Part shown: positions 1,984-31,085 of the stretch, in pieces
How positions within the stretch are numbered: position 1 is the stretch's first letter
Layout of the letters: every line of letters starts with the position of its first letter
NCBI GenBank assembly: GCA_030614005.1
Contig: JAUWKS010000011.1
Coordinates: forward strand, 1-32,000
Origin: Candidatus Heimdallarchaeota archaeon
GTDB lineage: Archaea > Asgardarchaeota > Heimdallarchaeia > JABLTI01
Direction of reading: 5' to 3'
DNA: 32,000 bases
Notes under the pieces: model-generated
Database searches by the model: none
What the model was told of the DNA's origin: nothing
What the model saw: the letters and a program-made list of their open reading frames with translations, nothing else
Program-made: the position numbers and the translations under genes

Positions 1984-2286
1984 TTGTCAAAAGAAAAGAT
2001 TGATCGTTCCGAAGCAATTCTTCGTAAAAAAAGAAATACTAAAAAAGGACTTCAAATGCGAAATAAAATTCTCATGTATTTATACGACATTTCAGATATG
2101 CGTGTTCCAACAGCTCAAATAGCAGATAATACTGGTCTAAGTTATCAAACTGTGAATTATCATCTTAAAAGCATGTTTGACGAAGAAGTAGTCGAAAAAT
2201 TCATTATTGCAAGAAAATCCTTCTGGAAAATAACTGGTTATGGTCAACAAACAATCAAAAAATGGTTAGAAAAAAATAATCAATAA
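1984..2286 (+). CDS. Winged helix-turn-helix (ArsR-like) transcriptional regulator
   Basis: RNKILMYL...TAQIADNTGLSYQTVNYHLKSM..EEVV..W..TG is a typical wHTH pattern. TTG start; divergent from galT. Confidence 0.75.
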   Translation: MSKEKIDRSEAILRKKRNTKKGLQMRNKILMYLYDISDMRVPTAQIADNTGLSYQTVNYHLKSMFDEEVVEKFIIARKSFWKITGYGQQTIKKWLEKNNQ

Positions 2287-2501: not shown

Positions 2502-4031
2502 ATGTCACAAGTATCATGGTATCCCTCTAACCCAAGAAGCAGGATGAACTTTTTCCTGAGAAGTTTTCCAATCTTTATTGCACTAGTAGCCTTTCTATAT
2601 TTCGGACTTGATTGGCTTGGAGCCTTTGAATTCCTTGAATTATTGGTTAGAGAAAATTCAGCATGGCTAATGAATGTTATATTTGGGATGAGCTATGATG
2701 AGTTTACTAGAGGATATTTTGAAAGAATAGATGACGACATCTTAAATAATGGTATAGTCCGATTCGGCGAAGATTTTCCCGGAATGATTTTGAAAGGATA
2801 TCCAATTACTCTTCTAATTATACGAGCTTGTACAGGTATGGAAGCAGGAGCACTTCTTATGGCTCTGATTTTAGTTACACCAGCAAAGTGGCATAAAAAA
2901 GCAATAGCTCAAGTAGTTAATTTACTAATGATGCACATTGGTAATACTTTCAGAGTTGCATTTCACTTCTGGTTTACAAATTACCTCTTCAAGGGAGGTA
3001 TGGATGCTCATACTGCATTCTTCTGGGCACACGATATGCTAAGCAAGGTGTTCGGTTTTGTTGGCATAGTAATATTTACTTTGGTAATTGAACGAACGGG
3101 TGTTAAAATTGTTTCAACCTTTGGTGCATGGATGGACGCAATAGGTGAGGGAGTAAAACGTTTATCATGGAAAATCGAAGGACGATCATTTTATTCGAGA
3201 TTGAAAACCATTGATACTTCTAATTCTGAAAAGCTTATTGTTGTCGATGAGATAGAACAAAGTGAAGTGCCCAAATCAAATATTGAAAAAATATTTTTCT
3301 ATCCTACCAAGGAAATAAACAAGAATAAATGGAAATTTGTTGGTAAAACCTTTGGTATTTTTGCTATTGTATCTGGTGCTATATTGATGCTTGGTTTTAT
3401 TCCAGGATTTAGTAAACTTATTGCTGGTTCTTCTGATACGGTTGCTATCAATTGGTTTGGTGCATCAAGAGAATCCTTTGAACAAGTAAACTATTGGTGG
3501 ATTTCAGTTTTCACAAATGCCCGTAACGCAAATTTCAAAGTTGGATTATTTGGTACTGGCTTAGGTCTTGTTGCTTTTATGATTGGTTTAATAGTTGCTA
3601 CACCCGGAGAATGGATAAAGAAATTATGGGCAACACTCATAACTTTCATTACAATTTTCCCATTACATATCTTTACTCTTGGTTTGCAGAAATATTGGGT
3701 GTATTCTTTAGCCTCTAATGATGCATTTAGAACTAATCATCCGTTACTTTATGTTAATTTTGCAGATATTCTTGTTTCCAATTTACCAGCTGTAATCTGG
3801 TTGCTAGGTTTTACTTTATTAATGGTAATTTATCACGCTCTCGATATCAAAGCATTTTATCTAATCTTTGCTTGGCTTCATAAATTATATTTTGTTTTCC
3901 TTCAACTTGTTGGTATTCGTAAAAGTCATGATAAGGATGAAATCTTTAGTGATGCAATTGAAGGAGAAAAAGAATCTAGTGAAGTGAAAGACAAACAAGA
4001 GAAAGAAGGAAACGAACTAATTTTCTCTTGA
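2502..4031 (+). CDS. Archaeosortase/exosortase-family intramembrane transpeptidase with a second, degenerate sortase domain
   Basis: Multi-pass membrane protein with IIRA-C110-TG, G-N148-TF-R151-V and WA-H177-D family motifs. Residues ~351-398 align without gaps to ~110-157 but lack the Cys and Arg. Confidence 0.85.
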   Translation: MSQVSWYPSNPRSRMNFFLRSFPIFIALVAFLYFGLDWLGAFEFLELLVRENSAWLMNVIFGMSYDEFTRGYFERIDDDILNNGIVRFGEDFPGMILKGYPITLLIIRACTGMEAGALLMALILVTPAKWHKKAIAQVVNLLMMHIGNTFRVAFHFWFTNYLFKGGMDAHTAFFWAHDMLSKVFGFVGIVIFTLVIERTGVKIVSTFGAWMDAIGEGVKRLSWKIEGRSFYSRLKTIDTSNSEKLIVVDEIEQSEVPKSNIEKIFFYPTKEINKNKWKFVGKTFGIFAIVSGAILMLGFIPGFSKLIAGSSDTVAINWFGASRESFEQVNYWWISVFTNARNANFKVGLFGTGLGLVAFMIGLIVATPGEWIKKLWATLITFITIFPLHIFTLGLQKYWVYSLASNDAFRTNHPLLYVNFADILVSNLPAVIWLLGFTLLMVIYHALDIKAFYLIFAWLHKLYFVFLQLVGIRKSHDKDEIFSDAIEGEKESSEVKDKQEKEGNELIFS

Positions 4032-4043
4032 ATCTCTAATAAT

Positions 4044-4049
4044 AGGTGA
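4044..4049 (+). promoter_or_regulatory. Archaeal Shine-Dalgarno site AGGTGA
   Basis: AGGTGA lies 5 nt before the ATG at 4055. The same hexamer precedes the ATG at 5298 (5286-5291) and, on the minus strand, the ATG at 18829 (18838-18843). Confidence 0.7.
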
Positions 4050-4054
4050 TGATT

Positions 4055-4765
4055 ATGTCAACTAAAGATGAGAAAAGAAAGCAAAAATTCAAAGAACGTC
4101 AAGAAAGGGAGAAAGATAAACAAGCTATCGAAGAAAAAATAAAAGCTGTTTTGGAGAAGCGGAAACCATTTGATGTAAGATCTTTAGTTGAATCTCTTGG
4201 AACTGATTCTGATTTAACGCAAGAGAAAATTCTTCCTGTTATTCGTGAAATGGAGCAAAAGAAGGAATTAGTATTACAGGAACCAATTTTTGAACCAATA
4301 GATCCACCCAAGAAATTGAAAGACTATTTTTTTGCTAAAAATTATTTCTCCTATGAAACTTGGATAACTTTAACAACAATAATGTTAGTTTTAACTTTAG
4401 TATTAGTTGACGTTCGCTCTGGATTCTTCTTCTATGTCAGATATATTGTTGTCTGTTTCTTTATGTTAATTCTCTCTGGTTGGGCATTAACATCTGCGAT
4501 GTTTCCTGAATTAGATGATAATCTTCGTTTTCTGGAGAGAGTGGCTACTGCAATTGGATTAAGTATTGTGGTTTTAGTATTAGATGGTTTATTTTTGAAT
4601 TACACGTTTAGATTTACTACGAAATCAATAGCGTTGAGCTTGTCAATTTTTATACTAGTCTGCTCGGCGATCTCAATTGGTTTACGAATTAAACTCGGTC
4701 GAGATGGTTATATTTTCAAGAAAAAAGAAGATAAAACATTGATTTTTGAGGTTGCTGAAAAATGA
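4055..4765 (+). CDS. DUF1616-family membrane protein (N-terminal TM half) with a charged, wHTH-like N-terminus
   Basis: Four TM helices including GWALTSAMFP...LRFLERVATAIGLSIVVLVLDGLFLNYT, which matches the DUF1616 N-terminal signature. Start moved from the track's GTG at 4046 to the ATG at 4055 on SD spacing. Confidence 0.7.
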   Translation: MSTKDEKRKQKFKERQEREKDKQAIEEKIKAVLEKRKPFDVRSLVESLGTDSDLTQEKILPVIREMEQKKELVLQEPIFEPIDPPKKLKDYFFAKNYFSYETWITLTTIMLVLTLVLVDVRSGFFFYVRYIVVCFFMLILSGWALTSAMFPELDDNLRFLERVATAIGLSIVVLVLDGLFLNYTFRFTTKSIALSLSIFILVCSAISIGLRIKLGRDGYIFKKKEDKTLIFEVAEK

Positions 4766-5295
4766 AACGATTAGATAGTAAAACTGGAAATACTTTCCAA
4801 ACAAGAAAATTATTGTTTAGTTTTATAATTTTACTTGTGATTATTCAATCAGCAAATTTATCGGATTTCAATACAATTTCACAAGTTACTGCTGCAACTG
4901 AAGAAGAAGCCTTCGATTCAATAATAAGCGCTTTTGAGAAAATAGAGCAAGCTACTTTGGAAGGGATTACTGTTCAAAGTTATATTGATGATCTAAATAT
5001 TGCTTTGGAGAAATATCATAATGGGTTGTTTGATGAAGCATATTCTATTGCTGAAACTGTTAAGGAAGAAGTTACTGAGATAATTAATAGTGCTAGGTGG
5101 GGTAAAATATTTCCTTATGTAATTGTACCTGTAAATATCGTTTTAATTGCTGCGATTGTAGTCTTTTTTGGTAGAAATATTTTAGGTTGGTTTAGAAGAA
5201 GGCGTGATGAAGAATACCTAGACTTAGAAATAGTCTATGAAACAGCTACTCCTGAAGAAGGAATTGACCAATCAGCTGCTGAAGAAGGTGAATAA
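4762..5295 (+). CDS. Hypothetical membrane protein (N-terminal TM/signal, helical domain, C-terminal TM, RRRR and acidic tail)
   Basis: ATGA overlap with the upstream gene; two hydrophobic segments; the second is followed by WFRRRRDEEY. Confidence 0.7.
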   Translation: MKRLDSKTGNTFQTRKLLFSFIILLVIIQSANLSDFNTISQVTAATEEEAFDSIISAFEKIEQATLEGITVQSYIDDLNIALEKYHNGLFDEAYSIAETVKEEVTEIINSARWGKIFPYVIVPVNIVLIAAIVVFFGRNILGWFRRRRDEEYLDLEIVYETATPEEGIDQSAAEEGE

Positions 5296-5297
5296 TT

Positions 5298-5906
5298 ATG
5301 ACTAAGAAAAAAAGTAATACTCGAGCAAAACGAGAAGTCGACTTTGAGTTAGCAGCAAAAATTGTTTTAGTTTTAACTGTAATTGGTATTCTTGTTTCCA
5401 CAGTTCTGATCTTTACTCCTCCGATAAGTGGAGAAGAATATGCTGAATTAGGATTACTAACCTATAATGCCTCAGAAGATAAATATGAAGCAGAAAATTA
5501 CCCCACAAATTTATTGTACGATAATACAGAAGGTGTATCTGAAAATATCTCTTTGTATATTCTCTTAGGTAACCATTATGAACGAGCAAAATTCTTCGAA
5601 GTAAGATTAAAAATCGGTCTCCAATCCGTGCTAATAAATCAAGATGTCTATGGAACAAATGATACAACCTATTTCCATGAAGCTCATTGGAAGCAAAAAG
5701 TACTTGCTGTAGGAGAACAATGGACTCCTTCATCAGAAACTGAATTTAAATTTCAATTTACTTCGGCTATTTTGGATAAGCTCGGAACTAGCTCTACAGG
5801 ATACAAAATAATTTTTGAACTATGGGAATGGAATAACCAATTAGATGATTTCAGTTACTCTGGCGTTCATGTCTATGTTACTTCAGTTAAACTGGTCTTT
5901 GTATAA
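5298..5906 (+). CDS. DUF1616 C-terminal (extracytoplasmic) domain protein with one N-terminal TM helix
   Basis: TM helix followed by GEEYAELGLL...AENYPTN...LYILLGNHY...FEVRLK, resembling the DUF1616 C-terminal domain. SD at 5286-5291; 2-bp gap from the upstream gene. Confidence 0.65.
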   Translation: MTKKKSNTRAKREVDFELAAKIVLVLTVIGILVSTVLIFTPPISGEEYAELGLLTYNASEDKYEAENYPTNLLYDNTEGVSENISLYILLGNHYERAKFFEVRLKIGLQSVLINQDVYGTNDTTYFHEAHWKQKVLAVGEQWTPSSETEFKFQFTSAILDKLGTSSTGYKIIFELWEWNNQLDDFSYSGVHVYVTSVKLVFV

Positions 5907-7129: not shown

Positions 7130-8749
7130 TTAATCTTGTTCTGTTCTTTTTTTTCTTTTCAGTTTTGAAATGATTTTATGATAAATTTTCACTATTGCAG
7201 AAGTTTCTTCATTGCTTGTATTTTTGACAAAGAAATTAATTATTACAAAAAGGAATATTAGTAGAAAAGCGAATATGATGCTAAAGTTAAACAAAATTCT
7301 TCTATTGGTAGAATTGCTAAATCTATCTAAAGGATCAGTATTATGTAGAAATTCTTGCCCATCGGAAAAACCATCTTGATCAGAATCAAATAAAGTAGGA
7401 TCTGTTCCTATTTCATTTTCCCAATAAGTGCTCAGGTTATCGTCATCTTCATCAATGGTAAAACCGATAAAGAGTCTTTGGAAAATATAATCATATCTCC
7501 CTTCTGCAAATCCAGTAGTAACAATAAATCCTAGATCATTAATTGCTAAACTATTTATTCTACTTTGAAGATATTTTTCGTTTTTTCCAGACCAAATAAC
7601 TTTTCCGGCAGAATCAAACTTTGTCATAAAAGCAACATTTTGGTTAAAGAAATCAGAAGTTGAATATCCTGCAATAATAAAATTTCCAGATTCAACAATT
7701 GCCACGGTCAAACCAACTTCATCAAGTTCATTTGTACCAAAGGTAATCCGCTTTTTCTCAGTTCCAGTTAAATCGTAAAAAATAATTATAGTATCTTTAA
7801 AATTGCTAATTTCTGAATTTGTAAATTCCCCTACGATAACTAAAGAATTATTTGATATTTCAATAAAAAAATCATTGAGTATTATATTATCAGCTAAAAG
7901 TGAATTAATCTCCCAGATTATATTTCCTTCCAAGGTTAGTTTCTGAACGGAATATTGGTTGGTATCTGTTGAAGTTTGACTATTTTTGCTATTGAAAACA
8001 AAATACATTTCTTCATTGGCGGTATCCAAAATTAATTTGGGTGCATATTCATAAATTTCGCTTGGAAATTTTTTCACCCAGATATCTAGTCCTGTAAAAG
8101 AATCAAAACAAGCTAAAATTATATTGGGATTTGTGTCAATATCAATAAATTCTGTTTCAATACCCGCAATGAATAATTTGTTTTCAAAAATTTCAATTGA
8201 ATAACCAACTTCGGAATAATCCTCAATTCCAAAGGTGTTATTCCAAATTTCAATTCCAGAAGTTGCATCATAACAACCAATTAAAAAATCTGTATAGGTT
8301 ATTCGAGAGATGTTTGCTGTAGAACCAACAATATAAATTAGATCTGTAGCTTCATTAAAACAAAGATCATAGGCTACATCTGTAGAATTATAGTCGTAAA
8401 TAGCTATCCATACAAGTGATCCCGTTGAATTTAGTTTTCCTACGATAATATCTGATTCACCAAAAAAGTTAGTTAAAATAGTTCCAGTAAAGTAGCTGTT
8501 CCCTTGCTCATCAAAAACAATCGAACGTCCTTCAATTTCAAAGGATTCGCGAAAAGTGGTTGTTTTCCCAAAAAGATAATGAATATCAGCAAAACCTGGA
8601 TTTTGTAATATTTCATCAAAACCTATTGTTTGGTTACTAATATTTGCTAATGAAAATCCATTTTTATTTTCTGGCACAAATATGTTGCAGATTACTATGA
8701 ATGTAATAACAACCAATATTTTTCTAGTGATTATCATTCGCAATTTCAA
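7130..8749 (-). CDS. Membrane-anchored beta-propeller protein with TSP3-like Ca-binding repeats
   Basis: N-terminal hydrophobic signal; propeller-type repeats (DIIVGKLNSTGSLVW, GYSIEIFENKLFIAG, GLTVAIVESGNFIIAG); DEDDDNLSTYWENEIGTDPTLFDSDQDGFSDGQEFLHNTDPLD; C-terminal TM helix and basic tail. True start may be the ATG four codons in. Confidence 0.75.
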   Translation of the reverse strand: MKLRMIITRKILVVITFIVICNIFVPENKNGFSLANISNQTIGFDEILQNPGFADIHYLFGKTTTFRESFEIEGRSIVFDEQGNSYFTGTILTNFFGESDIIVGKLNSTGSLVWIAIYDYNSTDVAYDLCFNEATDLIYIVGSTANISRITYTDFLIGCYDATSGIEIWNNTFGIEDYSEVGYSIEIFENKLFIAGIETEFIDIDTNPNIILACFDSFTGLDIWVKKFPSEIYEYAPKLILDTANEEMYFVFNSKNSQTSTDTNQYSVQKLTLEGNIIWEINSLLADNIILNDFFIEISNNSLVIVGEFTNSEISNFKDTIIIFYDLTGTEKKRITFGTNELDEVGLTVAIVESGNFIIAGYSTSDFFNQNVAFMTKFDSAGKVIWSGKNEKYLQSRINSLAINDLGFIVTTGFAEGRYDYIFQRLFIGFTIDEDDDNLSTYWENEIGTDPTLFDSDQDGFSDGQEFLHNTDPLDRFSNSTNRRILFNFSIIFAFLLIFLFVIINFFVKNTSNEETSAIVKIYHKIISKLKRKKRTEQD

Positions 8750-20085: not shown

Positions 20086-23000
20086 ATGAGCTCAAAATCT
20101 AAAAATAAATTGAAAGTAATATTAAAATCAAAAGAATCATTTCTAATAATTTGTTTGATACTTATCCCATTAGTACTAAATAATCAATATTCGAACAATT
20201 ATACTTCAGCCCATTCACCTGTATCGAGTCCAATGGAAATATTCTCCTTATGGAATGATACTATTCCCTTGATTGATGGTTTTGTTGATTTCAATTCTAC
20301 AAGCTCAGCTAGTGAATGGACAACAGCAGCAATTTATGATTTATTTAATACTGATCAAGATCCATCCTCAAAATTGCTTTTAAAAAATGATGACACTAAT
20401 CTCTATGTTGGAATAGATTGTATAAGCTATACAACAGAATCGCCTGCAAGTACATGGGGAATGGGCGTATACCTGGATCGTGATCATAACGGACTGCTAA
20501 GTCAAAATGACCGAGCAATATATTTTAAATCAAATGCAACAGATGAGCTAGTAATAATCTATCAATATAGCGCTCAGAACAATTTTTGGAAAGAAATAGA
20601 AACTGGTTATCTTGAGGACAACCTCACATCCTCGCACGTTGTAATAGATACTGATTTCAAGGACTCAGTTTTCGAAGAGCAACCTCATAGACAATATGAA
20701 ATAGTTATCCCATTATCATTAATGCAAGTAGCCCCCGGGCAAATAACTGGCATTGCTTTCGAGGTTTTTGAAAATTTATTTGGTGATGACGAGGAAAATA
20801 CTTGGCCATTTATTGAAACAACACCAAGAGATATAAGATTAAATGCTGGTCTTTGGGGCGATTTATTCATTGGGAAAAATTCTGGTGATTATTACACTAA
20901 ATATTCTATCGAAGACAATTTTAACATTAAAGATTCTGCAATCGGTCCAAATAATGGTACCTTTATGACTACTGCTGATATTAATGGAGATGGAGATTTA
21001 GAGCTGATTATTAGTTCAAACCGAACTGTTTCTTCTGATAATAATTTATTAGCGATTTATGATACAATCGATGGAGAATTAGTTAAAATATGGTCTTCGT
21101 GGTTTTCTGTTCATCAGAATAAGATGTTTTTAGTGAAGCAAATTGTTGCTTACGATTTCGATGAAAACGGACAAGATGAATTATATCTTGCAGGTGAAGA
21201 TAGTAGAATTCTAAGGTTAACAGAATGGGATGAAGAGATAAATGATTTTGATAAATCAGATTATGCTGTTACTCATACTTCAAGTTTAACAGGATATCTT
21301 GCAATTGGAGAGGCAACAAATATGGGTGTAATGAATTTAGTATTTGGAGATCAAAATGGAAAAGTCAATGTCTTGGAATATATTAATGCAACAGGTCTTT
21401 TTGAAAAAGATAAAAAATCACCTATTACTCCAATTGTTTCTGGTTATACTGTTGAAAAAATTCATGCAGTAGAAATTGCCGATGTAGATGCTGACGGTAG
21501 ATATGAAATATTAATGAATTTACAAATAACTTCAGACGATTCAATTTCAACAACTCGGTTACAGATCTATGAGAGAACTATAGCGAAATACCTGGAAAAC
21601 ATAGAAGATGATTTGCCATCAGCTTCATCTATTTTAACTGAAGATAATTTTGGTCATACAATCATTGTTGCTGATGTTGATAATGACTTGGAATCAGAAA
21701 TAGTTTTAGTAGGACAAAATTATTTGAGAATATTGAGTGCAAATTCTTTCCTAGATGCTGAACCACATTTAGAATTTAAAATTAATGATGAAGTAAATTC
21801 TCCATTCATGGGTGGTGGTGCATTAGTCTATGATGTGGATGATGACTCATATAATGAATTGGTTTTTAGTTGTAATAACGGCACTTTATTTGTAATCAAT
21901 ATTACAGATTCAGGAAGCAACTCATTATCTTACAATATAAAGTGGTCAAGTGATATTGGCTCTTCCTCAGGGAAAAGAAAGTCAATACTCGCTTATGATT
22001 TGGATGAGGATACAGAAACAGAAATAATATTCGGTGATAACTTTGGTCAAATAATGACTTTAGGTAAATCAGCTATTCCGGAAATAAGAATTCTCTCACC
22101 ATCATCAGGTTCAACTGTTTCAACATCATCTGTTCTAATTACTTGGGAAGGATTAGATGATTTTGCTATTCACCATTATGATATTTTTGTTGAAGGCAGT
22201 ATCCAAGGTAGAGTAAATGGCAGTCAAACTGCTTTTATTGTTTCTTTGCCATCATCAAGTAATACAATTGAAATTATTTGCTACGATGTTAACGGTAAGA
22301 GTGCTTCTGATTCAATTATTGTTAGTCAATCTACAACTGCACCACAAATTTACATTACAAGCCCTGAAAATTATTACCAAACAGCTTCTAATGACATTAG
22401 AATAGAATTCGATTATTCTGATCCAAATGATGATTTTGATCATTATGAAGTATGGATTGATGAAGCTCAATTTGGTGGAGATTATGCTCCATCTACTACT
22501 TTCGTAGATTTAACTTTGAATACCGATGGTGAACATAACATAACTGTAGTTGGTATTGATTCTAAGTTAAATAGAGGAAAAAGCTCAATATTTGTTACAG
22601 TTGATACAACTGCACCCTTATTGACAATTACTAATCCAATAAGCGGTTCAGCAATGAAACTGACAACAATTGAGCTGCAATGGACTGCATCGGATGCTCT
22701 AAGTGGATTATCACATTTTGTTGTGAAAAAAGATGGTTTTGTTTATGCAACCACATCAGCACTTTCACAATTAGTGTCATTGGATTCAGATAAAATTTAT
22801 GATCTACAAGTTACTGCTTACGATCAATTAGGAAATTCAAGAATAGATTCTATCACAATAGTGAAGGATACAGCAAAACCAACCGTTTTAATCACCGATC
22901 CAATTGATGGTTATACAACCTCTTCAGATCAATTAACAATAAATTGGGAATCAGAAGATAATATCGGTGGCACGGGTATTCATCATACTGAAGTAATTGT

Positions 23001-25614
23001 CAATCAGCAAACAAAATATTCCAGTACAGGTGCAACAACAGCTACCTTTTCAGTTGAGGATGAAGGTGTAAAAGATATCATCGTTACAACATATGATAAA
23101 GCGGGAAATATTGATACAGATCACATCATTGTTTATGTGGATAGTACTGTTCCTTATCTCGAAATTCTTTCACCAGAAACCGGCTTCATAACTGGTTTGG
23201 ATTATTTTATCGCTAATTGGTACAGCAATGATACTGGTTCAGGAATAGCTGAATACAATATCTATGTTGACAATGTATTAATAGAAACGATAAGTGATCC
23301 ATTAGTAACTACTACAATAGTACCATTGACCCTTGATCACACTTCCTCGATAATAATTAGTGTAGTTGATGTTTACGGTTATGTATTTAATGATACTATT
23401 TCTGTTACTCAAGATTCCACTCTCCCCTCAATTGCACTTATTACACCGCAAGCGAATTTCTCTTACATCTCTGACTCATTAATTTCCATTGAATGGGATG
23501 TAGCAAATATTCAAGATTTCATTTCATACTTCATATATGTTAATGAGACGCTTAATCAAACTATTAGCGATATTTCAACAAAGAATACTATTATTGATTT
23601 GGGAGCTATTCCGATAAATGAATATCCACTCTTTAATCTAACTATTGTTGTTCAGACCCTAAGTAACAATATTTCAGATACAAAATGGATCATTGTTGAT
23701 CAATCTATACCTTCAGTTACAATAATCACTCCGGCAAATTATACTACTTATTATCAAGATATAATCTATATTCAGTGGACAGCCAACGATCAGGGATCAG
23801 GTGTGTATAATTATAAAATTCTAGTAAATGGTCAATACCTTGAATTCTGCTCTTACGATAAAAATTATTATTATCTAATATTCAATGAAGAGGATGGAGA
23901 GCAATTAATAACCATTGAAGTATTCGATTTTGCTTCCAATAGAGCTACAAGCAACATTACACTTCTTTTGAATATCTTACTGCCTGAATATCAAGCAAAT
24001 ATTCCTACCATTTATTATACACAAGATGGTGACTTCCAATTTGATTTTACGGTGACAGACACGCAATCTGGTGTAAAGGGTTTAATTATGTTGTTAGATG
24101 ATGATGAAATAGTGAATGAGAACTATGAATTAGCAATTAGAAATGAATCATTTACTCTTTCATATGACTTTAATGAATCATCATTTACTGCATTAGATGA
24201 TAGTCATGAACTTGAAGTCGCAATACTTGACTTTTATAATCGTGAATTGATTCAATTATATATTATTAATATTGATACACAAAACCCAACAATTCTTCCA
24301 ACAATAACAGTTGATTCTGAATTACTAACTGCAGATGGATTAGAATTAGTAAATGGTAGCAAAGAGAGTCTCTTGTTCTTGGTAACTGTTACAGACAATT
24401 TTGGTATAGATAGAGTCACTTTAACTGTTGTAAGTGAAGATTCGACTGCAACATACGATATGATTGCTGAAACAGAAGAAGGACTTCAAGTTGTACATTA
24501 CTCTCTAAATTTAAGCATAGCTGATTTTGAAATAGGTGAATATACAATTATTTTCACTACATTTGATCTTGCAGGTAATAATCAAAGTTTATCATATAAT
24601 TTGGCTATTATTCCTATAGTAGAAATCCCGTGGTTCCAACAAGGAAATAATGCTATCTACCTATCCATAGGGATTGGTGGATTACTACTTATATCAACAA
24701 TGTTAGCTATAGGCGCTACAAAAGGACCCATTGCAAATAAAGATTGGAAAGAAGAAATTATTGCTGTTCTTTTTGTTAAGAAGACAGGATTAACTTGTGT
24801 TAGTGTTAATTATGTTCAGCAATTAATTCAGGAAGAACAATTAATTGGTGGAGCAATGATAGCAATCCAAAGTATGCTTACTGAAATTTCAGGAAGTAAA
24901 TTGAAAGGAACGATTGAAACTATGGAACTAGGTGATAGAACCATGTTTCTTTTCTTAGGTGAATATGGGATCAGTGTTTTAATGGTTAATCAAGTTAAAC
25001 CAATTCATAAGAAATTGCTAAAGAAATTCAATGACAAATTTGTTAAGAAATATTCTGTAGCATTAGAAAATCTATTCTTTGTAGATAGCACTTCTTTTCT
25101 TGGTAGTGAAAAACTTGTTGAAAAAATCTTTGGTCCAGTGAAGGAGATTACTCCAGAATCTGGAATTGCAAATCAATTGCAAACTATAATCGATGATATT
25201 AAACCAGAAGTAATCAGTATAATTGAAAAAGATAAGAAAGAATCAGATTTAATTCATGAAAGCGATTCTCCTATAGATCATTTAGTAAAACAATTATCTC
25301 GAGAATCAAATAGAAGTCTTACAAAAATAATAACTACTACTCCTGCAATAATAATTGCATTAGCTGAACAGAATTTTGATGAAGCAGAGACTCATTTACA
25401 ATCTGTAATTATGGATATTGAACTATTACGTCAACTAGAAAGAACGAATTTTGAGTTGCAGCTATTCATCGAAAATATGAGAACAATAACCAATGAAATA
25501 AGGGTAGCTATTGATGCTGGTCGGCAAAATGATACAACTAGACTAAGACAAGCAATCGAAAATTCAACTAGAATTTGGTTTGATGACATAGCTGAAAAAT
25601 GGTCTGATATCTAA
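20086..25614 (+). CDS. Giant single-pass surface receptor A: DOMON/CBM9-like domain, FG-GAP propeller, 9 Ig-like domains, TM, longin-like domain, helical tail
   Basis: N-terminal hydrophobic signal; IPLIDG...EW...KNDDTNLYVG...HRQYEIVIPL (DOMON/CBM9-like); seven DxDxDG-type repeats; nine ~90-100-aa repeats of the form P.i.I.sP...W...D..SGi..y.i.vng...i...D..GN; TM at ~24652-24717; cytoplasmic region with longin-type secondary-structure order. Confidence 0.85.
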   Translation: MSSKSKNKLKVILKSKESFLIICLILIPLVLNNQYSNNYTSAHSPVSSPMEIFSLWNDTIPLIDGFVDFNSTSSASEWTTAAIYDLFNTDQDPSSKLLLKNDDTNLYVGIDCISYTTESPASTWGMGVYLDRDHNGLLSQNDRAIYFKSNATDELVIIYQYSAQNNFWKEIETGYLEDNLTSSHVVIDTDFKDSVFEEQPHRQYEIVIPLSLMQVAPGQITGIAFEVFENLFGDDEENTWPFIETTPRDIRLNAGLWGDLFIGKNSGDYYTKYSIEDNFNIKDSAIGPNNGTFMTTADINGDGDLELIISSNRTVSSDNNLLAIYDTIDGELVKIWSSWFSVHQNKMFLVKQIVAYDFDENGQDELYLAGEDSRILRLTEWDEEINDFDKSDYAVTHTSSLTGYLAIGEATNMGVMNLVFGDQNGKVNVLEYINATGLFEKDKKSPITPIVSGYTVEKIHAVEIADVDADGRYEILMNLQITSDDSISTTRLQIYERTIAKYLENIEDDLPSASSILTEDNFGHTIIVADVDNDLESEIVLVGQNYLRILSANSFLDAEPHLEFKINDEVNSPFMGGGALVYDVDDDSYNELVFSCNNGTLFVINITDSGSNSLSYNIKWSSDIGSSSGKRKSILAYDLDEDTETEIIFGDNFGQIMTLGKSAIPEIRILSPSSGSTVSTSSVLITWEGLDDFAIHHYDIFVEGSIQGRVNGSQTAFIVSLPSSSNTIEIICYDVNGKSASDSIIVSQSTTAPQIYITSPENYYQTASNDIRIEFDYSDPNDDFDHYEVWIDEAQFGGDYAPSTTFVDLTLNTDGEHNITVVGIDSKLNRGKSSIFVTVDTTAPLLTITNPISGSAMKLTTIELQWTASDALSGLSHFVVKKDGFVYATTSALSQLVSLDSDKIYDLQVTAYDQLGNSRIDSITIVKDTAKPTVLITDPIDGYTTSSDQLTINWESEDNIGGTGIHHTEVIVNQQTKYSSTGATTATFSVEDEGVKDIIVTTYDKAGNIDTDHIIVYVDSTVPYLEILSPETGFITGLDYFIANWYSNDTGSGIAEYNIYVDNVLIETISDPLVTTTIVPLTLDHTSSIIISVVDVYGYVFNDTISVTQDSTLPSIALITPQANFSYISDSLISIEWDVANIQDFISYFIYVNETLNQTISDISTKNTIIDLGAIPINEYPLFNLTIVVQTLSNNISDTKWIIVDQSIPSVTIITPANYTTYYQDIIYIQWTANDQGSGVYNYKILVNGQYLEFCSYDKNYYYLIFNEEDGEQLITIEVFDFASNRATSNITLLLNILLPEYQANIPTIYYTQDGDFQFDFTVTDTQSGVKGLIMLLDDDEIVNENYELAIRNESFTLSYDFNESSFTALDDSHELEVAILDFYNRELIQLYIINIDTQNPTILPTITVDSELLTADGLELVNGSKESLLFLVTVTDNFGIDRVTLTVVSEDSTATYDMIAETEEGLQVVHYSLNLSIADFEIGEYTIIFTTFDLAGNNQSLSYNLAIIPIVEIPWFQQGNNAIYLSIGIGGLLLISTMLAIGATKGPIANKDWKEEIIAVLFVKKTGLTCVSVNYVQQLIQEEQLIGGAMIAIQSMLTEISGSKLKGTIETMELGDRTMFLFLGEYGISVLMVNQVKPIHKKLLKKFNDKFVKKYSVALENLFFVDSTSFLGSEKLVEKIFGPVKEITPESGIANQLQTIIDDIKPEVISIIEKDKKESDLIHESDSPIDHLVKQLSRESNRSLTKIITTTPAIIIALAEQNFDEAETHLQSVIMDIELLRQLERTNFELQLFIENMRTITNEIRVAIDAGRQNDTTRLRQAIENSTRIWFDDIAEKWSDI

Positions 25615-25636: not shown

Positions 25637-25668
25637 GTAAAATGAAATATGTTTTATATTTCATTTAC
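25637..25668. terminator. Hairpin between the convergent receptor genes (putative bidirectional terminator)
   Basis: Perfect 11-bp stem AAATGAAATAT (25640-25650) / ATATTTCATTT (25656-25666) with a 5-nt loop, extendable to 13 bp with one bulge; T-tract after the stop at 25614. Confidence 0.6.
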
Positions 25669-28600
25669 TCTTCACTATTATCAATGCTATCATTGAGTGA
25701 ATCATAGTCGTTTTCATAGGATTCAACATGTTCTACTTCTTCTGTAGGAATAGTTTCAGCTAAGGTTTCAGTTGGATGCTCAGCGTTAGTTGATAATTCT
25801 TCAGAGTGTTCTCTGACTGGTTCCTCTGTAAAGGTAAAATCATTAGCATTTTGATCAGCCGATTCCTCTGTAGAGGGAGTTTCTCGACTATTTCTAAAAT
25901 CTTCACTTCTCGCACCAAAGTAACTTTCAACCATTAGGGGAGCAGCATCATAATCATTCAGATTAAGCATATCTTGTGCTAGAGTATGCTTATAGGTCAA
26001 TTCAAATTCAAGAATGAAATTTTTAAGCAAATCTTTCAAAATAGGCTTCGCTTCACTTACCAATAGGATAGCATTTCCAAAAATTCCAGAACAAACAAGA
26101 AGGCGTTTTCCTCCATATTCTATTGTTTGAACTTTCATTGTAACTTCTTCTTCACCTGTTATCTCTCCGAGAATGCCTACAATACCTGTTAAGGCACCTC
26201 CAAATAACTGCTCATCGGCGTATAAATCTTCAGCGTATTGAATATATGCAACAGTTAATCCTGTTTTGGTAACATAAGCAACAGCTTTAATAACATCACG
26301 CCAACCGCGATTTCCTCCTCTCTTACGGGCAACAACTGTTATGATTGTCGCTAATATGAGCATTAGTAGTAATCCCGCTGCACTTGGAATAACAATAGTA
26401 AAGAGATTATCCATTAACCATTGACTAGATCCACCTGGTGTAGTTGGAGGTGGTGTTGTGATAATTTGCTGTTGTTCAATAGAAACTACTAGCGAAAAAG
26501 ATTGTGACAAAGTATTGCCTGCATTATCTGTAATCAAAAATTGTATACTGTAAATTCCTGCAGAATAGTCATCAAAATTAACAGAGATGTCAAACACAAA
26601 GACAGTAGAAGTTGAATGCTCAGCATTGAATGCCATTTGATAGGAGAAAGTGTGATTTTCATTAGAAATGAGTAAATTGACTTGCTGGATTCCACTATTA
26701 TCAGTTGTTGACACAGTAAAATTATGTACATCAGTTCTATTTTCTGAAATTTCAATATTATATCCTGATGGACCTAATAGAGTGCTATCAATTATTGGAT
26801 TGAACAGATATGGATTTTCCTTATCTATAATAATATCAACTGTTGTAGTAGCACTTCGACCACCGCGGTCGTATATTGTTATCGTTAAATTGTGTTCATT
26901 TGAAGGCGCAACAAAGTCCACTTCTTCTACATTGACTATAACATCAAAAGGATCAACTCGATAACTTTCATTATAATTGATATAATAAACTATTTCTGAA
27001 TTATCAGCTAAAACAAATACTTCTTGTATCCCGGAACTAGGATTAGTAATTGATATTGTAACCGGGAAATTTGGATCATTAGTTATCACTGAAGCAGAAA
27101 TATCAAGAGTAAATTCAGGCTCAGAAGGGAAAAGATTGATGTAAATGGTAGAATTTATTGCATTACCAGCGAAATCTCGTCCTTCTAATATTATCATATA
27201 TACTCCATCTGTATAGCTTTCAACATCAATCTCTCTCACAGTAATCGTTTTATCCCAGCTGTCAATTAACGTATCGTTGACCCATAGTGTATAGCTACTA
27301 ATGTCTGAACCAATATCGCTTCCTGACCAAGTTATCACAACCGAATCATCAGAAATTGTTGCAAAATTTAAAGGAGAAATAATGGCTACTACTGGGTTCT
27401 TTAAATCAACAATAACATATTTTGTATCAAAAAATTGGTATTGTCCTCCAATAACTGCGACAACGGTAATATTCGCTATTGGATAGGTGTTTTCATCAAT
27501 TAAACCAAATACGTCTTCTAAATTGATAATAGTATCAAAAGTAGTATTTGTATATGGATAATCAGTTCCATTAATGAAAACGATGAACGAATCTGGATTG
27601 ATATTTATTGTTTCCCAAGTCACTTCTACAAATGTTGAGTTGATATAGCTAGATTCAGCTAATGGATTGGTTATAATTAATATTGGTGAAATAGGATCAT
27701 GCTCAACATTGATAGTGTCTTCTGCAAAATTATCTAGAAAATCAGTAACTCGAATAGTTATTGTATAAATTTTTGTTTCGGAAATATCGACAAAATATGA
27801 GTTAATTGTTGGATCTGTAAATGTTGCTACAGTAAAACTATCAACAATAACAACAATTTCTTTTATTCCTGAACCTATATCTGATGCATCCCAGAAAACA
27901 GTGACATTTTCTGCACTAGTTAAATAATTGTTCTCTGGAGAAGTAATAGTTACTTGAGGGTTAGATACATCATAAGCAATAATGAAATAATCACTGGCAA
28001 AGTTTCCAGCCATATCATAAGCAACTATTTTAACGTTATTTCCTCCTTCTTCAGTTAGAGTAATCGTATCATCTACTTCAGTAGAAGTATAGTTACTAAA
28101 TTGTTCACCATTTATTAAAACTTCAAAATAGTCTATACCACTTCCACTTGCAGTATCATTGCCATTCCATTCAATGAATACATCTGCTAAATCAGTAACA
28201 AACCAACCATCATCATTCACTGGATAACTTAAAGACTCTAATGAAACTGAAGGGTCAATAGTATCTCGAGTAACCTGAATTGAATCTGAACCTGTTTTGC
28301 CTAAAATATCATAGGCTAAAACTACCAAGGTATATTCTTTTTCAAAGGGAAGATCAACATCATAATATTTGGTTGTAGTATTTCCTTGCAGTTCTCCATC
28401 ACGATAGATTTCATAATAATCAATAGAGCTATGTTCATCGTATGCTGACCATTTGAGTTGGATCAAACTGCTACTTACAAAAGAATTATCTGCTGGAGAA
28501 GTAATAGCAATGACTGGACCTGTATTATCATATGTAACATAAATCATATCTTTTACTCTATCACTTCCATCTGTAGCAATTACAGTAATGTTCCAAGTAC

Positions 28601-31085
28601 CTTCTGAATCAAAACTAAAAGTATGTTGCAGTAGTGAAGTTGTTCCTTTATCTGTACCGTTAGCATATACTTCAAAAGTAAGATCATCTGATTGAGGGTC
28701 GTATGCATCCCAATAGATTGTAATAGATGATAGATCTGTCAAAAAACCATTTTCAGGACTTGTTATATCTATTGTTGGTGCACCGGCATTGTATATCACT
28801 GATCGACTGTCTGAATCAGTTTCACCTCGAATGTCTGTACAAACAATATTAACAACATTACTTCCTGATTCTAAAGGAATCACCGCGCCAGTTTGTGCTC
28901 CACCAACTCTTAAAGAAAGTTTGGCATTAATGTAAATATCATAGAAAACTATAGGCAAAGAGTCATTTGAGGTTTCCCACTCAAATAAAATGGTATTTTG
29001 ACCGGTAGTATAACCTTCAATTGGAGAAGTAATTGAAAAGGAGGGTAATTCACCCAAACCAAGAACAATTATTTGACCAAATTGGTCACCAATAAACGCC
29101 TCTTCTGCTCCATCTCCATCAATATCCAAGCCAATGATTGAACCTCTTTTACCAGGCATGGTACCTAAATCACCTTTCCATTCAGTGATAACAAATAAAT
29201 CTTCAATAGCATCATCAGGATTTAAATCAACGATTTGATATACAAAGGTAGTTCCATTATTACAACCAACAATTAATTCATTATACGAATCGCCATCAAT
29301 ATCAAAAACTCCTGCACCTCCACCCATAGATGGATATGTTTCATCATTGATATCAAGCACTAATGGAATTGTTGTATCATTAAATGTGTCATGACCGAAA
29401 ATTTTCAAGTAGTCTTTTCCGACAATAATTGTTTCATGTATTCCATCATTGTCAACATCAGCAACAATAATCGTATGACCAAAACTATCAAAGGTATTTG
29501 AATGTGAACTTATTGGTAAATCATCTTCATATCCATATGTTGGGTCTGCAGTTGGATTATCATAAATTGATGTGCCTGTAAGTTCAAAAATCTGTAAACC
29601 AGTTGATGAGACTGAATCATCAGCTGAAAACTGGGATAACAGTAGAATTTCATTTACGTTCCAGCTATCATGATCCGACTCAGCAATTTCTACTGCATGA
29701 ATTTTTGTAATTGATGAGCTATTGATATCTGGTGCAATATACCAAGCATCATTCCATTGCGTAAATGGTTTGAATTCTTTATCATATTCAAGAATAGTAA
29801 AAGTTGTATCGCTATCGCCAATGAGAATATTAGCATTACCATCATTGGTAGCATCACCTATAGCAATATACCCCATTGTATTGTAAACATTATCAAATGC
29901 TAAATCTAGTGTGTCGAAGTCTCCGGAAACATCATTCCAATCTTTTAATCTCAATATTCGAGAATCTTCTGTGCTTGCCATATATATTTCATCTTCTCCA
30001 TCACCTGTGAAGTCATAACAAGCAATGCCTTGTGTTAGAAAGAGGCTATCCTTATGGGTTGAAGTCCATGAGTTCCAAATTTGAGTTATTTCTCCATCGA
30101 CAGTATCATAAATAGCAATTAAATTAGTGTCCACTGAAACAGTTCGATTTGAGCTGACAATTAATTCTAAATCACCATCTCCGTTAATATCACCTGATGA
30201 TAGAAAGGTACCGTTATTGGTGCCAATGGCTCCATCTTTTATGTTAAAATTATCTTCAATAACATATTTGGTGTAAACACCGTTTTCACCAAGATAAATA
30301 TCTCCCCAGCAATTCGCTGTTGTCCTAAAAATAGTTGAAGAATCATCAGTATAGGGCCAAGTAATACTCCCCGTACCAGAAGAATATATATTCGTAGCAG
30401 CAAAACCAATTCCGAAAAGATCACCTGGATTTTTATTCAGGGTGTCAAGATCAATTTTGAATTCATATTGTCTGTGAGAGTTTGTTGAGTCAAAAAATGA
30501 TTTTGAATAATCCATGTCTACAGTGACATTGTAAGTTGGAATTTCCACACCAGTTGTATCTGTAGCTAACAAATCCCATTGCCCATTACTTAATCCTCTA
30601 TAAATATCAACATGTAAAGTATCATTTACCTCATTCATGACAGAAACATATCTATCACTTGTGTCTAAAATACCATTATGATTTAAGTCAAAGACTATTC
30701 CTGCTCCCCAAGCAGTAGCTGGATCTTCAACTTCATAGTCAATCATATCGAATCCAATATAGAGATATGAATCATCATTTTGTAGGAAAACTTTACCTCT
30801 AGGACTTTCCAAATTATCATACATATCATAAACAGCTGCTGAAGCCCATTCAATTGAAGCATCTGTACCATTGAATTCTATTTTGCCATCTAGGTTCGGT
30901 AGAATCGTACTATTATAGAGCGAATAGATTTCTTTTGGATATGCAAGAGGTGAATGTCCTCTAATTGGTGTATAATTGAAATTATAGATTGCGATAAATA
31001 ATGAAGCAGTTAATAGTACTATCAAGAATAATTTAATACTACCCTTCTTAAATTTACTAATATGAAAATGGGGATTTATAGGCAT
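25665..31085 (-). CDS. Giant single-pass surface receptor B, paralog of A, with an acidic disordered C-terminal tail
   Basis: Same domain order as receptor A; a PPPTTPGG linker before the TM helix (~26331-26408); ARKR stop-transfer; longin-like domain at ~25914-26297; E/S/T-rich tail. Confidence 0.85.
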   Translation of the reverse strand: MPINPHFHISKFKKGSIKLFLIVLLTASLFIAIYNFNYTPIRGHSPLAYPKEIYSLYNSTILPNLDGKIEFNGTDASIEWASAAVYDMYDNLESPRGKVFLQNDDSYLYIGFDMIDYEVEDPATAWGAGIVFDLNHNGILDTSDRYVSVMNEVNDTLHVDIYRGLSNGQWDLLATDTTGVEIPTYNVTVDMDYSKSFFDSTNSHRQYEFKIDLDTLNKNPGDLFGIGFAATNIYSSGTGSITWPYTDDSSTIFRTTANCWGDIYLGENGVYTKYVIEDNFNIKDGAIGTNNGTFLSSGDINGDGDLELIVSSNRTVSVDTNLIAIYDTVDGEITQIWNSWTSTHKDSLFLTQGIACYDFTGDGEDEIYMASTEDSRILRLKDWNDVSGDFDTLDLAFDNVYNTMGYIAIGDATNDGNANILIGDSDTTFTILEYDKEFKPFTQWNDAWYIAPDINSSSITKIHAVEIAESDHDSWNVNEILLLSQFSADDSVSSTGLQIFELTGTSIYDNPTADPTYGYEDDLPISSHSNTFDSFGHTIIVADVDNDGIHETIIVGKDYLKIFGHDTFNDTTIPLVLDINDETYPSMGGGAGVFDIDGDSYNELIVGCNNGTTFVYQIVDLNPDDAIEDLFVITEWKGDLGTMPGKRGSIIGLDIDGDGAEEAFIGDQFGQIIVLGLGELPSFSITSPIEGYTTGQNTILFEWETSNDSLPIVFYDIYINAKLSLRVGGAQTGAVIPLESGSNVVNIVCTDIRGETDSDSRSVIYNAGAPTIDITSPENGFLTDLSSITIYWDAYDPQSDDLTFEVYANGTDKGTTSLLQHTFSFDSEGTWNITVIATDGSDRVKDMIYVTYDNTGPVIAITSPADNSFVSSSLIQLKWSAYDEHSSIDYYEIYRDGELQGNTTTKYYDVDLPFEKEYTLVVLAYDILGKTGSDSIQVTRDTIDPSVSLESLSYPVNDDGWFVTDLADVFIEWNGNDTASGSGIDYFEVLINGEQFSNYTSTEVDDTITLTEEGGNNVKIVAYDMAGNFASDYFIIAYDVSNPQVTITSPENNYLTSAENVTVFWDASDIGSGIKEIVVIVDSFTVATFTDPTINSYFVDISETKIYTITIRVTDFLDNFAEDTINVEHDPISPILIITNPLAESSYINSTFVEVTWETININPDSFIVFINGTDYPYTNTTFDTIINLEDVFGLIDENTYPIANITVVAVIGGQYQFFDTKYVIVDLKNPVVAIISPLNFATISDDSVVITWSGSDIGSDISSYTLWVNDTLIDSWDKTITVREIDVESYTDGVYMIILEGRDFAGNAINSTIYINLFPSEPEFTLDISASVITNDPNFPVTISITNPSSGIQEVFVLADNSEIVYYINYNESYRVDPFDVIVNVEEVDFVAPSNEHNLTITIYDRGGRSATTTVDIIIDKENPYLFNPIIDSTLLGPSGYNIEISENRTDVHNFTVSTTDNSGIQQVNLLISNENHTFSYQMAFNAEHSTSTVFVFDISVNFDDYSAGIYSIQFLITDNAGNTLSQSFSLVVSIEQQQIITTPPPTTPGGSSQWLMDNLFTIVIPSAAGLLLMLILATIITVVARKRGGNRGWRDVIKAVAYVTKTGLTVAYIQYAEDLYADEQLFGGALTGIVGILGEITGEEEVTMKVQTIEYGGKRLLVCSGIFGNAILLVSEAKPILKDLLKNFILEFELTYKHTLAQDMLNLNDYDAAPLMVESYFGARSEDFRNSRETPSTEESADQNANDFTFTEEPVREHSEELSTNAEHPTETLAETIPTEEVEHVESYENDYDSLNDSIDNSEE

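Follow-up and report, generated by a model that had tools for sequence, protein, structure and literature searches.

The gene at positions 2502–4031 (forward strand) of a 32,000-nt stretch of DNA from Candidatus Heimdallarchaeota archaeon (contig JAUWKS010000011.1, positions 1–32,000; the whole stretch is called the window below) encodes P0001, a polytopic membrane protein of 509 residues in which an entire archaeosortase membrane domain of ~220 aa is present twice. Domain 1 is unexceptional within its curated family, the heimdallarchaeosortases, and the tandem, degenerate second copy is the unusual feature. On balance we favor a single explanation for the whole protein, in which copy 2 would be an in-gene duplicate serving as a non-catalytic partner and copy 1 would carry out catalysis. 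The open reading frame (ORF), coordinates and residue numbers of the original prediction for this locus were confirmed on re-checking. The gene is divided as follows.

2502..4031, forward strand: whole gene, two-domain heimdallarchaeosortase P0001, 509 aa plus stop (ORF list and translation)
2502..3185, forward strand: domain 1 (aa 1–228), archaeosortase domain with its catalytic residues intact (matched by NF045528 at nt 2550–3143)
3186..3284, forward strand: variable linker (aa 229–261), predicted to be cytoplasmic and disordered (model confidence, orthologue variation and substitution rates)
3285..3935, forward strand: domain 2 (aa 262–478), duplicated archaeosortase fold without the Cys or His (hhalign, AF2 model and Foldseek)
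3936..4028, forward strand: C-terminal tail (aa 479–509), charged and variable (low model confidence over aa 476–509; poorly conserved)

P0001 was assigned with NF045528, the NCBIfam equivalog model for heimdallarchaeosortase (199 model positions, curated cut-off 130 bits), which it matches at 245 bits over aa 17–214 and, for aa 1–230 alone, at 237 bits. The exosortase/archaeosortase superfamily signature TIGR04178 (cut-off 23 bits) likewise recognizes domain 1, at 42.1 bits over aa 105–196 and at 46.8 bits in the genome search. No further homologue of the superfamily accompanies P0001 in its genome (3.6 Mb, 126 contigs, 90% complete). With 509 aa and two copies, the protein departs from the single-domain layout of about 240–300 aa that characterizes most NF045528 members. 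A scan with PF09721, from which two matches had been anticipated, returned none for P0001 or for either half (E up to 10), as this model is too remote from the heimdallarchaeosortase clade; a Pfam scan of P0001 recognized nothing, and NCBIfam models were used in its place. Our orthologue set comprised 31 full-length proteins (470–584 aa, 44–80% identical). All of them align end to end with no internal stop, frameshift or truncation, and since the same continuous frame recurs in independent assemblies, an assembly or read-through artefact is ruled out. Public records name the two-domain orthologues "heimdallarchaeosortase" or "hypothetical protein", and the duplication goes unmentioned in these names. 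In one orthologue, P0032 (584 aa), domain 2 is followed by an additional TM2/NINE domain (PF05154) at the C-terminus.

The internal repeat is evident at several levels of sequence comparison. The gapless pairing of aa 110–157 with aa 351–398, on which the original prediction was built, was reproduced over 48 aa with 12/48 identities and a BLOSUM62 score of 53, a score reached by none of 20,000 shuffles (maximum 30), and the next-best register within P0001 scores 4. Pairwise BLASTP recovers the same pairing (E 5e-4). Profile–profile comparison of the N-half and C-half alignments of the 31 orthologues with hhalign extended the match to ~195–203 columns (probability 97.7–98.6%, E 2.5e-12 to 4e-15), and reversed or column-shuffled control profiles scored at most 18.7 versus 86 for the real halves, which establishes domain 2 as a true homologue of domain 1. 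The match extends from W/F-Y-P near the N-terminus, across the turn with T-P-x-x-W-x-x-K, as far as a late Trp that is invariant, so that the duplication takes in the whole domain and not a motif alone. Scanned by themselves at E ≤0.01, the 31 C-halves matched NF045528 (17), XrtX (11), TIGR04178 (4), ArtA (3), XrtY (2) and XrtH (2); for P0001 itself, domain 2 reaches 20.5 bits with NF045528, below the cut-off. Judged by hidden Markov model (HMM), from this score and the scarcity of TIGR04178 matches, domain 2 falls outside the functional members. No C-half matched NF041730, the exosortase H-associated membrane protein, at the same E-value limit.

The two copies had been described as separated by a soluble linker of ~80 aa. 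That length stands only when measured from transmembrane (TM) helix to TM helix (aa 197–283), and about half of the span consists of conserved domain parts, namely an amphipathic helix of domain 1 (aa 203–228) and the N-terminal FYP motif of domain 2 (aa 262–283). The truly variable, low-confidence part between the domains is limited to aa ~229–261; it is rich in Lys and Arg, differs among orthologues in length and sequence, and has a predicted local distance difference test (pLDDT) score of 30–48 over aa 235–260.

Structure prediction supports the repeat at the level of the fold. The full-length AlphaFold model of P0001 (pLDDT 79, predicted template modelling score (pTM) 0.66) displays the same helix order and a β-hairpin in both halves, with disorder between them at residues 235–260 and, in the C-terminal tail, pLDDT below 50 over aa 476–509. 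A separate AF2 model of aa 262–478 reached pLDDT 87 and pTM 0.77. In Foldseek searches with this half 2 model against AFDB clusters, 22 of the top 30 matches bear the name exosortase or archaeosortase and the remainder have no telling name (best E 1.4e-5, TM-score up to 0.62); against Swiss-Prot, only ArtE, ArtA (D4GUZ4 of H. volcanii and Q3IS61 of N. pharaonis) and ArtD were retrieved at E ≤0.03, followed by a sharp drop in score. Neither sequence search nor fold search found a solved structure for the exosortase/archaeosortase family, and the structures compared in the fold searches are all predictions. The separate model and these searches, without direct superposition of the halves, place domain 2 on the archaeosortase fold; since the model of half 2 retrieves exosortase and archaeosortase folds, the lack of a sortase fold, which the original prediction had named as fatal to it, was not encountered.

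Hydropathy and charge analysis revealed that each half opens with a basic segment ahead of its first TM helix. This suggests a common course for both halves, with a basic cytoplasmic N-terminus, an outward-running TM1, an extracytoplasmic helix and hairpin, and then three TM helices in which the positions of the Cys, the Arg and the His lie on the side of the outer face. As the predicted course is the same in both, the halves would lie parallel in the membrane.

The catalytic positions of the two halves, with their states across the 31 orthologues, are located as follows.

2829..2831, forward strand: codon of Cys110, predicted nucleophile of domain 1 (Cys in 31/31)
2943..2954, forward strand: Asn148-Thr-Phe-Arg151 motif of domain 1 (Asn and Arg each in 31/31)
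3030..3032, forward strand: codon of His177 in the A-H-D motif of domain 1 (His in 31/31)
3552..3554, forward strand: codon of Gly351 in domain 2, at the position of the catalytic Cys (column: Ser 21, Thr 4, Gly 3, Ala 2, Asn 1)
3666..3677, forward strand: His389-Ile-Phe-Thr392 of domain 2, at the N-x-x-R position (Asn in 20/31, Arg in 20/31)
3762..3764, forward strand: codon of Ala421 in domain 2, at the position of His177 (column: Ala 26, Gln 2, Ser 1, Val 1, Thr 1)

Domain 1 presents the Cys, the Arg of N-x-x-R and the His in three successive TM helices, as in the superfamily. The Cys and N-x-x-R are conserved in single-domain and distant relatives alike, and the His in nearly all relatives. 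The activity of ArtA is reported to depend critically on Cys173 and Arg214 (PMC9263693). The distance from Cys to Arg is 41 residues in ArtA and likewise between Cys110 and Arg151, from which spacing, and not from an alignment to ArtA, we infer that the two pairs correspond.

In domain 2, Cys110 is paired with Gly351, Asn148 with His389, Arg151 with Thr392 and His177 with Ala421. The absence of an equivalent of His177, noted at the outset, holds across the whole set, with His in 0/31 at that column; the neighboring Asp422 is retained in 26/31. The claimed loss of both Cys and Arg stands for the Cys, which none of the 31 orthologues has in domain 2, and fails for the Arg, which 20 of them keep, so that the retention of these residues in orthologues, set down beforehand as an outcome that would count against the idea, has occurred in part. 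Loss of the Arg (Thr392) is specific to the sublineage of P0001, which together with its nearest relatives is the most degenerate in domain 2, with Gly/Thr, His and Thr/Ser at the catalytic positions. With the nucleophile and the His both gone, domain 2 is not a cysteine transpeptidase. These patterns delineate a stepwise decay of a catalytic site on a conserved fold, in which the Cys and His have disappeared everywhere and the Asn and Arg in part of the lineage.

Half 2 is nevertheless maintained. Ratios of nonsynonymous to synonymous substitution rates (dN/dS) between close orthologues were 0.04–0.12 for half 1, 0.20–0.34 for half 2 and about 0.2–1.3 for the linker, and mean column identity across orthologues was 72% for half 1 and 55% for half 2. 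Although the orthologues are only 34–45% identical there, half 2 contains 15 invariant and 19 nearly invariant columns, as well as motifs of its own that are missing from half 1 (I300-P301, D312, G320 and P414-x-x-Y417-x-N419). The dN/dS values and these columns, its own motifs included, show that half 2 is held by purifying selection and is not decaying. It could be argued that copy 2 is functionless ballast in slow decay, tolerated since its removal would disturb topology or folding; that it evolves ~3 times faster than copy 1 and has lost its catalytic residues stepwise would fit such a history. We consider this very improbable, given a dN/dS well below 1 beside an adjoining linker that is near neutral, the persistence of 34 invariant or nearly invariant columns, the conserved motifs particular to copy 2, and the absence of any frameshift, stop or truncation among the orthologues.

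Selection on copy 2, together with Ser at the Cys position in 21/31 and both Asn and Arg at the N-x-x-R position in 20/31, is also what would be expected if copy 2 were an enzyme with altered chemistry that uses this Ser and Asn-x-x-Arg for a second step, e.g., hydrolysis or lipid transfer. P0001 and its nearest relatives, however, keep copy 2 intact with Gly/Thr, His and Thr/Ser at these positions, and the property under selection must therefore be independent of those residues; moreover, the conserved His is missing from all 31. Exchange of Cys173 for Ser in ArtA is reportedly inactivating. A Ser-based second enzyme thus appears distinctly unlikely to us.

To define the distribution of the two-domain form, we consider 399 genomes of the phylum, searched with NF045528 in six frames. 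Eighty of them contained a match above cut-off, all but one within the class of P0001. Frames of 488–509 aa were confined to the genus of P0001, in G000 and nine of ten congeners, and in the tenth (G085) the gene is broken over two contigs. The other families (f2–f7) contained single-domain frames of 233–301 aa, with one extra paralogue frame of 394 aa. Strong matches to a C-half profile (232–336 bits) were found in GTDB family f1 only, in 12 genomes; one of these, G090, belongs to a second genus and has the gene cut by two contig ends between the same flanking neighbors. The same profile found no stand-alone C-half gene in 70 genomes of other families of the class, where it only weakly re-detected their single sortase. 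A search of 1.84 billion representatives yielded two full-length two-domain clusters (P0021 and P0012) and one fragment (P0034), followed by single-domain relatives. The two-domain form is confined to f1 in the phylum search, with which the representative search agrees. The duplication is thus a lineage-specific innovation that all of f1 has and other heimdallarchaeosortases lack. The architecture is not general to the family, most heimdallarchaeosortases being single-domain.

Two further observations were made in these searches. Several genomes of genus g16 in family f6 (G066, and also G059, G067, G071 and G074–G076) encode two separate single-domain paralogues, both above cut-off, which in G066 lie at G066:C1:1324371-1324979 and G066:C1:459393-459983. 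In the representative library, the N-half profile matched P0054 (757 aa) in 12 separate stretches at E 4.7e-12; the sole NCBIfam match of P0054 is to a peptide-maturation ACP-related model at 37 bits against a cut-off of 70, and the N-half match is probably repetitive or compositional.

The origin of copy 2 was addressed by phylogeny and profile comparison. All C-halves group together in the tree (100/100), their common stem being 3.5 changes per site long, and fall among the heimdallarchaeosortases with 94/88 support against the majority of the distant relatives. N- and C-halves are sisters with 51/43 support, and approximately unbiased (AU) tests reject neither alternative placement (p-AU 0.44 and 0.31), for which reasons the tree leaves duplication versus fusion unsettled. 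The branching within the N-half clade and within the C-half clade is broadly congruent, as expected from a single old event. The C-half profile finds its best match in its own N-half (score 73 over 195 columns, compared with 57 over 116–125 columns for other heimdallarchaeosortases and outgroups), and three motifs, W/F-Y-P, W-[LF]-G-A and K-W-x-x-K, occur in both halves but not in single-domain relatives. These shared motifs favor an in-gene duplication in the f1 ancestor. The competing scenario, in which an active sortase gene fused with a separate paralogue that had by then lost its activity, would account for the very long C-half stem and its weakly supported attachment, and separate heimdallarchaeosortase paralogues do exist in some genomes of another family. 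It has to contend with the lack of any stand-alone C-half-like gene in the other families of the class (70 genomes), with the full-length affinity of the C-half for its own N-half, with motifs that the halves share to the exclusion of single-domain relatives, and with C-halves that are unmatched by NF041730; we judge it unlikely.

Candidate substrates are encoded in the same genome. The Heimdall-CTERM model NF045529 identified two proteins over cut-off and seven at E ≤0.01, and none over cut-off in 14 control genomes. A pattern search for [P/S/I/T]-G-[F/Y] followed by a TM helix and Lys/Arg residues at the terminus returned 27 ORFs, most of which start with a hydrophobic, signal-peptide-like N-terminus. 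The candidates scanned include M6-like metalloproteases, a solute-binding protein and a choice-of-anchor S protein. Proteins with the cognate tripartite sorting signal therefore co-occur with the domain 1 enzyme, as is typical of the superfamily. The PGF-CTERM model TIGR04126 found nothing over cut-off in this genome, and the sorting signal is better described by the Heimdall-CTERM and Loki-CTERM models.

Taken together, we propose that in an ancestor of the f1 lineage a tandem duplication inside the gene doubled the entire polytopic heimdallarchaeosortase domain of ~220 residues. From the example of Haloferax ArtA, we infer that copy 1, with its Cys, Asn-x-x-Arg and His, is a transpeptidase that would remove the C-terminal Heimdall-CTERM tail from secreted surface proteins and then transfer the cleaved proteins to a membrane lipid. 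Copy 2 retains the fold, the predicted membrane orientation and several scaffold motifs, i.e., Y-P, the T-P-x-x-W-x-x-K at the cytoplasmic turn and the late Trp. Most likely, it is a fixed, non-catalytic partner packed on copy 1 in the membrane, giving a covalent pseudo-heterodimer, and may add stability or a docking surface for the TM tail of the substrate or for the lipid acceptor, in keeping with the adaptor role for substrate or lipid that was first suggested for the dead half. In this scheme, copy 1 as the catalyst, copy 2 as its partner and the packing of one against the other are all putative.

Packing was evaluated by co-folding the halves as separate chains. The pair scored 0.41 (best of three controls, 0.00), and the runs shared at least 83% of contacts with a partner pLDDT of at least 77. 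Of 80 solved complexes, 58 attain the mark applied, as do 2 of 110 mismatched pairs, and scores of 0.60 or less comprise only 7 of the 80 solved complexes plus both passing mismatches, so that a pseudo-dimer of the two halves is weakly indicated in silico. Besides this modest score, several points weigh against the partner model. The last helix of each half (aa 203–228 and 449–472) may cross the membrane, its course being uncertain, and the halves would in that case be antiparallel. Single-domain heimdallarchaeosortases occur in ~68 genomes of the same class, with NF045528 scores of up to 280 bits, above that of P0001, which implies that copy 2 is dispensable for the basic reaction. Copy 2 may also possess residual or altered activity in the species with Ser or Asn-x-x-Arg, because of the frequency with which these residues are found among the orthologues. 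Finally, a literature search for "heimdallarchaeosortase" found no paper, and the family has no biochemical record; searches for archaeosortase with Heimdallarchaeota and for exosortase with pseudoenzyme found none either.

A broader version of the partner model can be formulated, in which archaeosortases and exosortases generally act as dimers, one protomer cleaving and the other holding the TM tail or the lipid acceptor, and the Heimdall lineage has fused both, the dead half then being where the acceptor or substrate binds. We grant this generalization a small but real chance. To our knowledge, neither the oligomeric state nor the mechanism of lipid attachment has been established for exosortases and archaeosortases.

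The sortase gene is followed and preceded by conserved neighbors.

1984..2286, forward strand: small winged-helix protein, candidate regulator (HTH_24, FaeA and HTH_5 matches)
4046..5906, forward strand: three tightly spaced downstream genes at 4046–4765, 4762–5295 and 5298–5906, with gaps of 14, −4 and 2 nt

The three downstream genes encode membrane proteins and probably form an operon with the sortase gene. Among them, DUF1616 (PF07760) appears split, with the ORF at 4046–4765 matching profile positions 5–120 and that at 5298–5906 matching positions 148–271; the ORF between the two parts (4762–5295) encodes an unrelated single-pass protein of 177 aa. Recurrence of the arrangement at loci L013, L015 and L023 rules out an assembly error. 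The sortase–DUF1616 gene order is kept at L013–L016 and L023 within family f1 and was not found adjoining the single-domain heimdallarchaeosortases of other families, and the winged-helix gene is kept upstream of the sortase gene at L013–L015 and L022. Since synteny spans the whole region within the genus, this conservation is by itself no proof of a functional link between the sortase and DUF1616.

Elsewhere in the window, several ORFs have features of surface proteins. At the contig start (positions 1–641), frame 3 ends in L-P-G-F, a hydrophobic helix, RRKKK and a stop (about 555–641), a Heimdall/PGF-type sorting tail 1.9 kb upstream of the sortase gene; the upstream coding signal lies in frame 1, with a stop at 226–228 and an end near 520, and the segment resembles the 3′ terminus of a substrate gene that has been frameshifted or broken. 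The ORF at 7130–8749 (reverse strand, 539 aa) combines a bacterial TSP3 repeat with a C-terminal TM helix and, beyond it, a long basic tail. The xG[FY] motif is absent from this TM-anchored surface protein, which is only 35% identical at orthologous loci, as against 45–75% for its neighbors. Two convergent giant paralogous ORFs at 20086–25614 (forward strand, 1842 aa) and 25665–31085 (reverse strand, 1806 aa) have signal-anchor-like N-terminal segments and acidic C-termini without a sorting tail, and are probably large surface or receptor proteins.

Comparison with known systems places P0001 closest to the heimdallarchaeosortases of NF045528. Domain 1 matches this family over its full length, exceeds the cut-off and preserves the Cys, N-x-x-R and the His, and its genome encodes Heimdall-CTERM (NF045529) proteins. 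Typical members are single-domain, whereas P0001 and its f1 orthologues add the degenerate second copy in the same ORF. ArtA of Haloferax volcanii (D4GUZ4; TIGR04125) has its superfamily and fold in common with both halves of P0001, and its PGF-CTERM signal is resembled by the [P/S/I]-G-[F/Y], TM helix and basic tail found in the genome of P0001. It differs in being a single catalytic domain of ~300 aa, as opposed to two copies, the ArtA model matching P0001 at 40 bits, below its cut-off of 75; in addition, ArtA function has been demonstrated experimentally, whereas that of P0001 is deduced by comparison. The exosortase H-associated membrane protein NF041730, encoded by a gene separate from that of the TIGR04177 exosortase H, is unlike the C-halves by HMM. 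Pseudoenzyme partners are familiar among membrane proteases and transamidases, such as the iRhoms and derlins for rhomboids and the non-catalytic subunits of the glycosylphosphatidylinositol (GPI) transamidase. Such dead homologues or subunits bind or present clients, and an enzyme of the GPI transamidase type swaps a C-terminal signal for a lipid anchor. Their resemblance to P0001 is by analogy only, with no relationship in sequence or fold.

Heimdallarchaeia rank with the archaea known to be closest to eukaryotes, and the building of their cell surface is poorly understood. At the level of annotation, our analysis corrects database records in which these proteins of ~500 aa are either described for their first 200 residues only or listed as hypothetical. 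P0001 and its orthologues also supply a natural asymmetric construct suited to cryo-EM and mutagenesis, in which the single active site can be inactivated and the pseudo-site examined. The fusion of an active and an inactive copy suggests that exosortases and archaeosortases may act in pairs; if a division of labor within such a dimer proves true, these proteins would for the first time make the lipid-transfer step of archaeosortases accessible to structural study.

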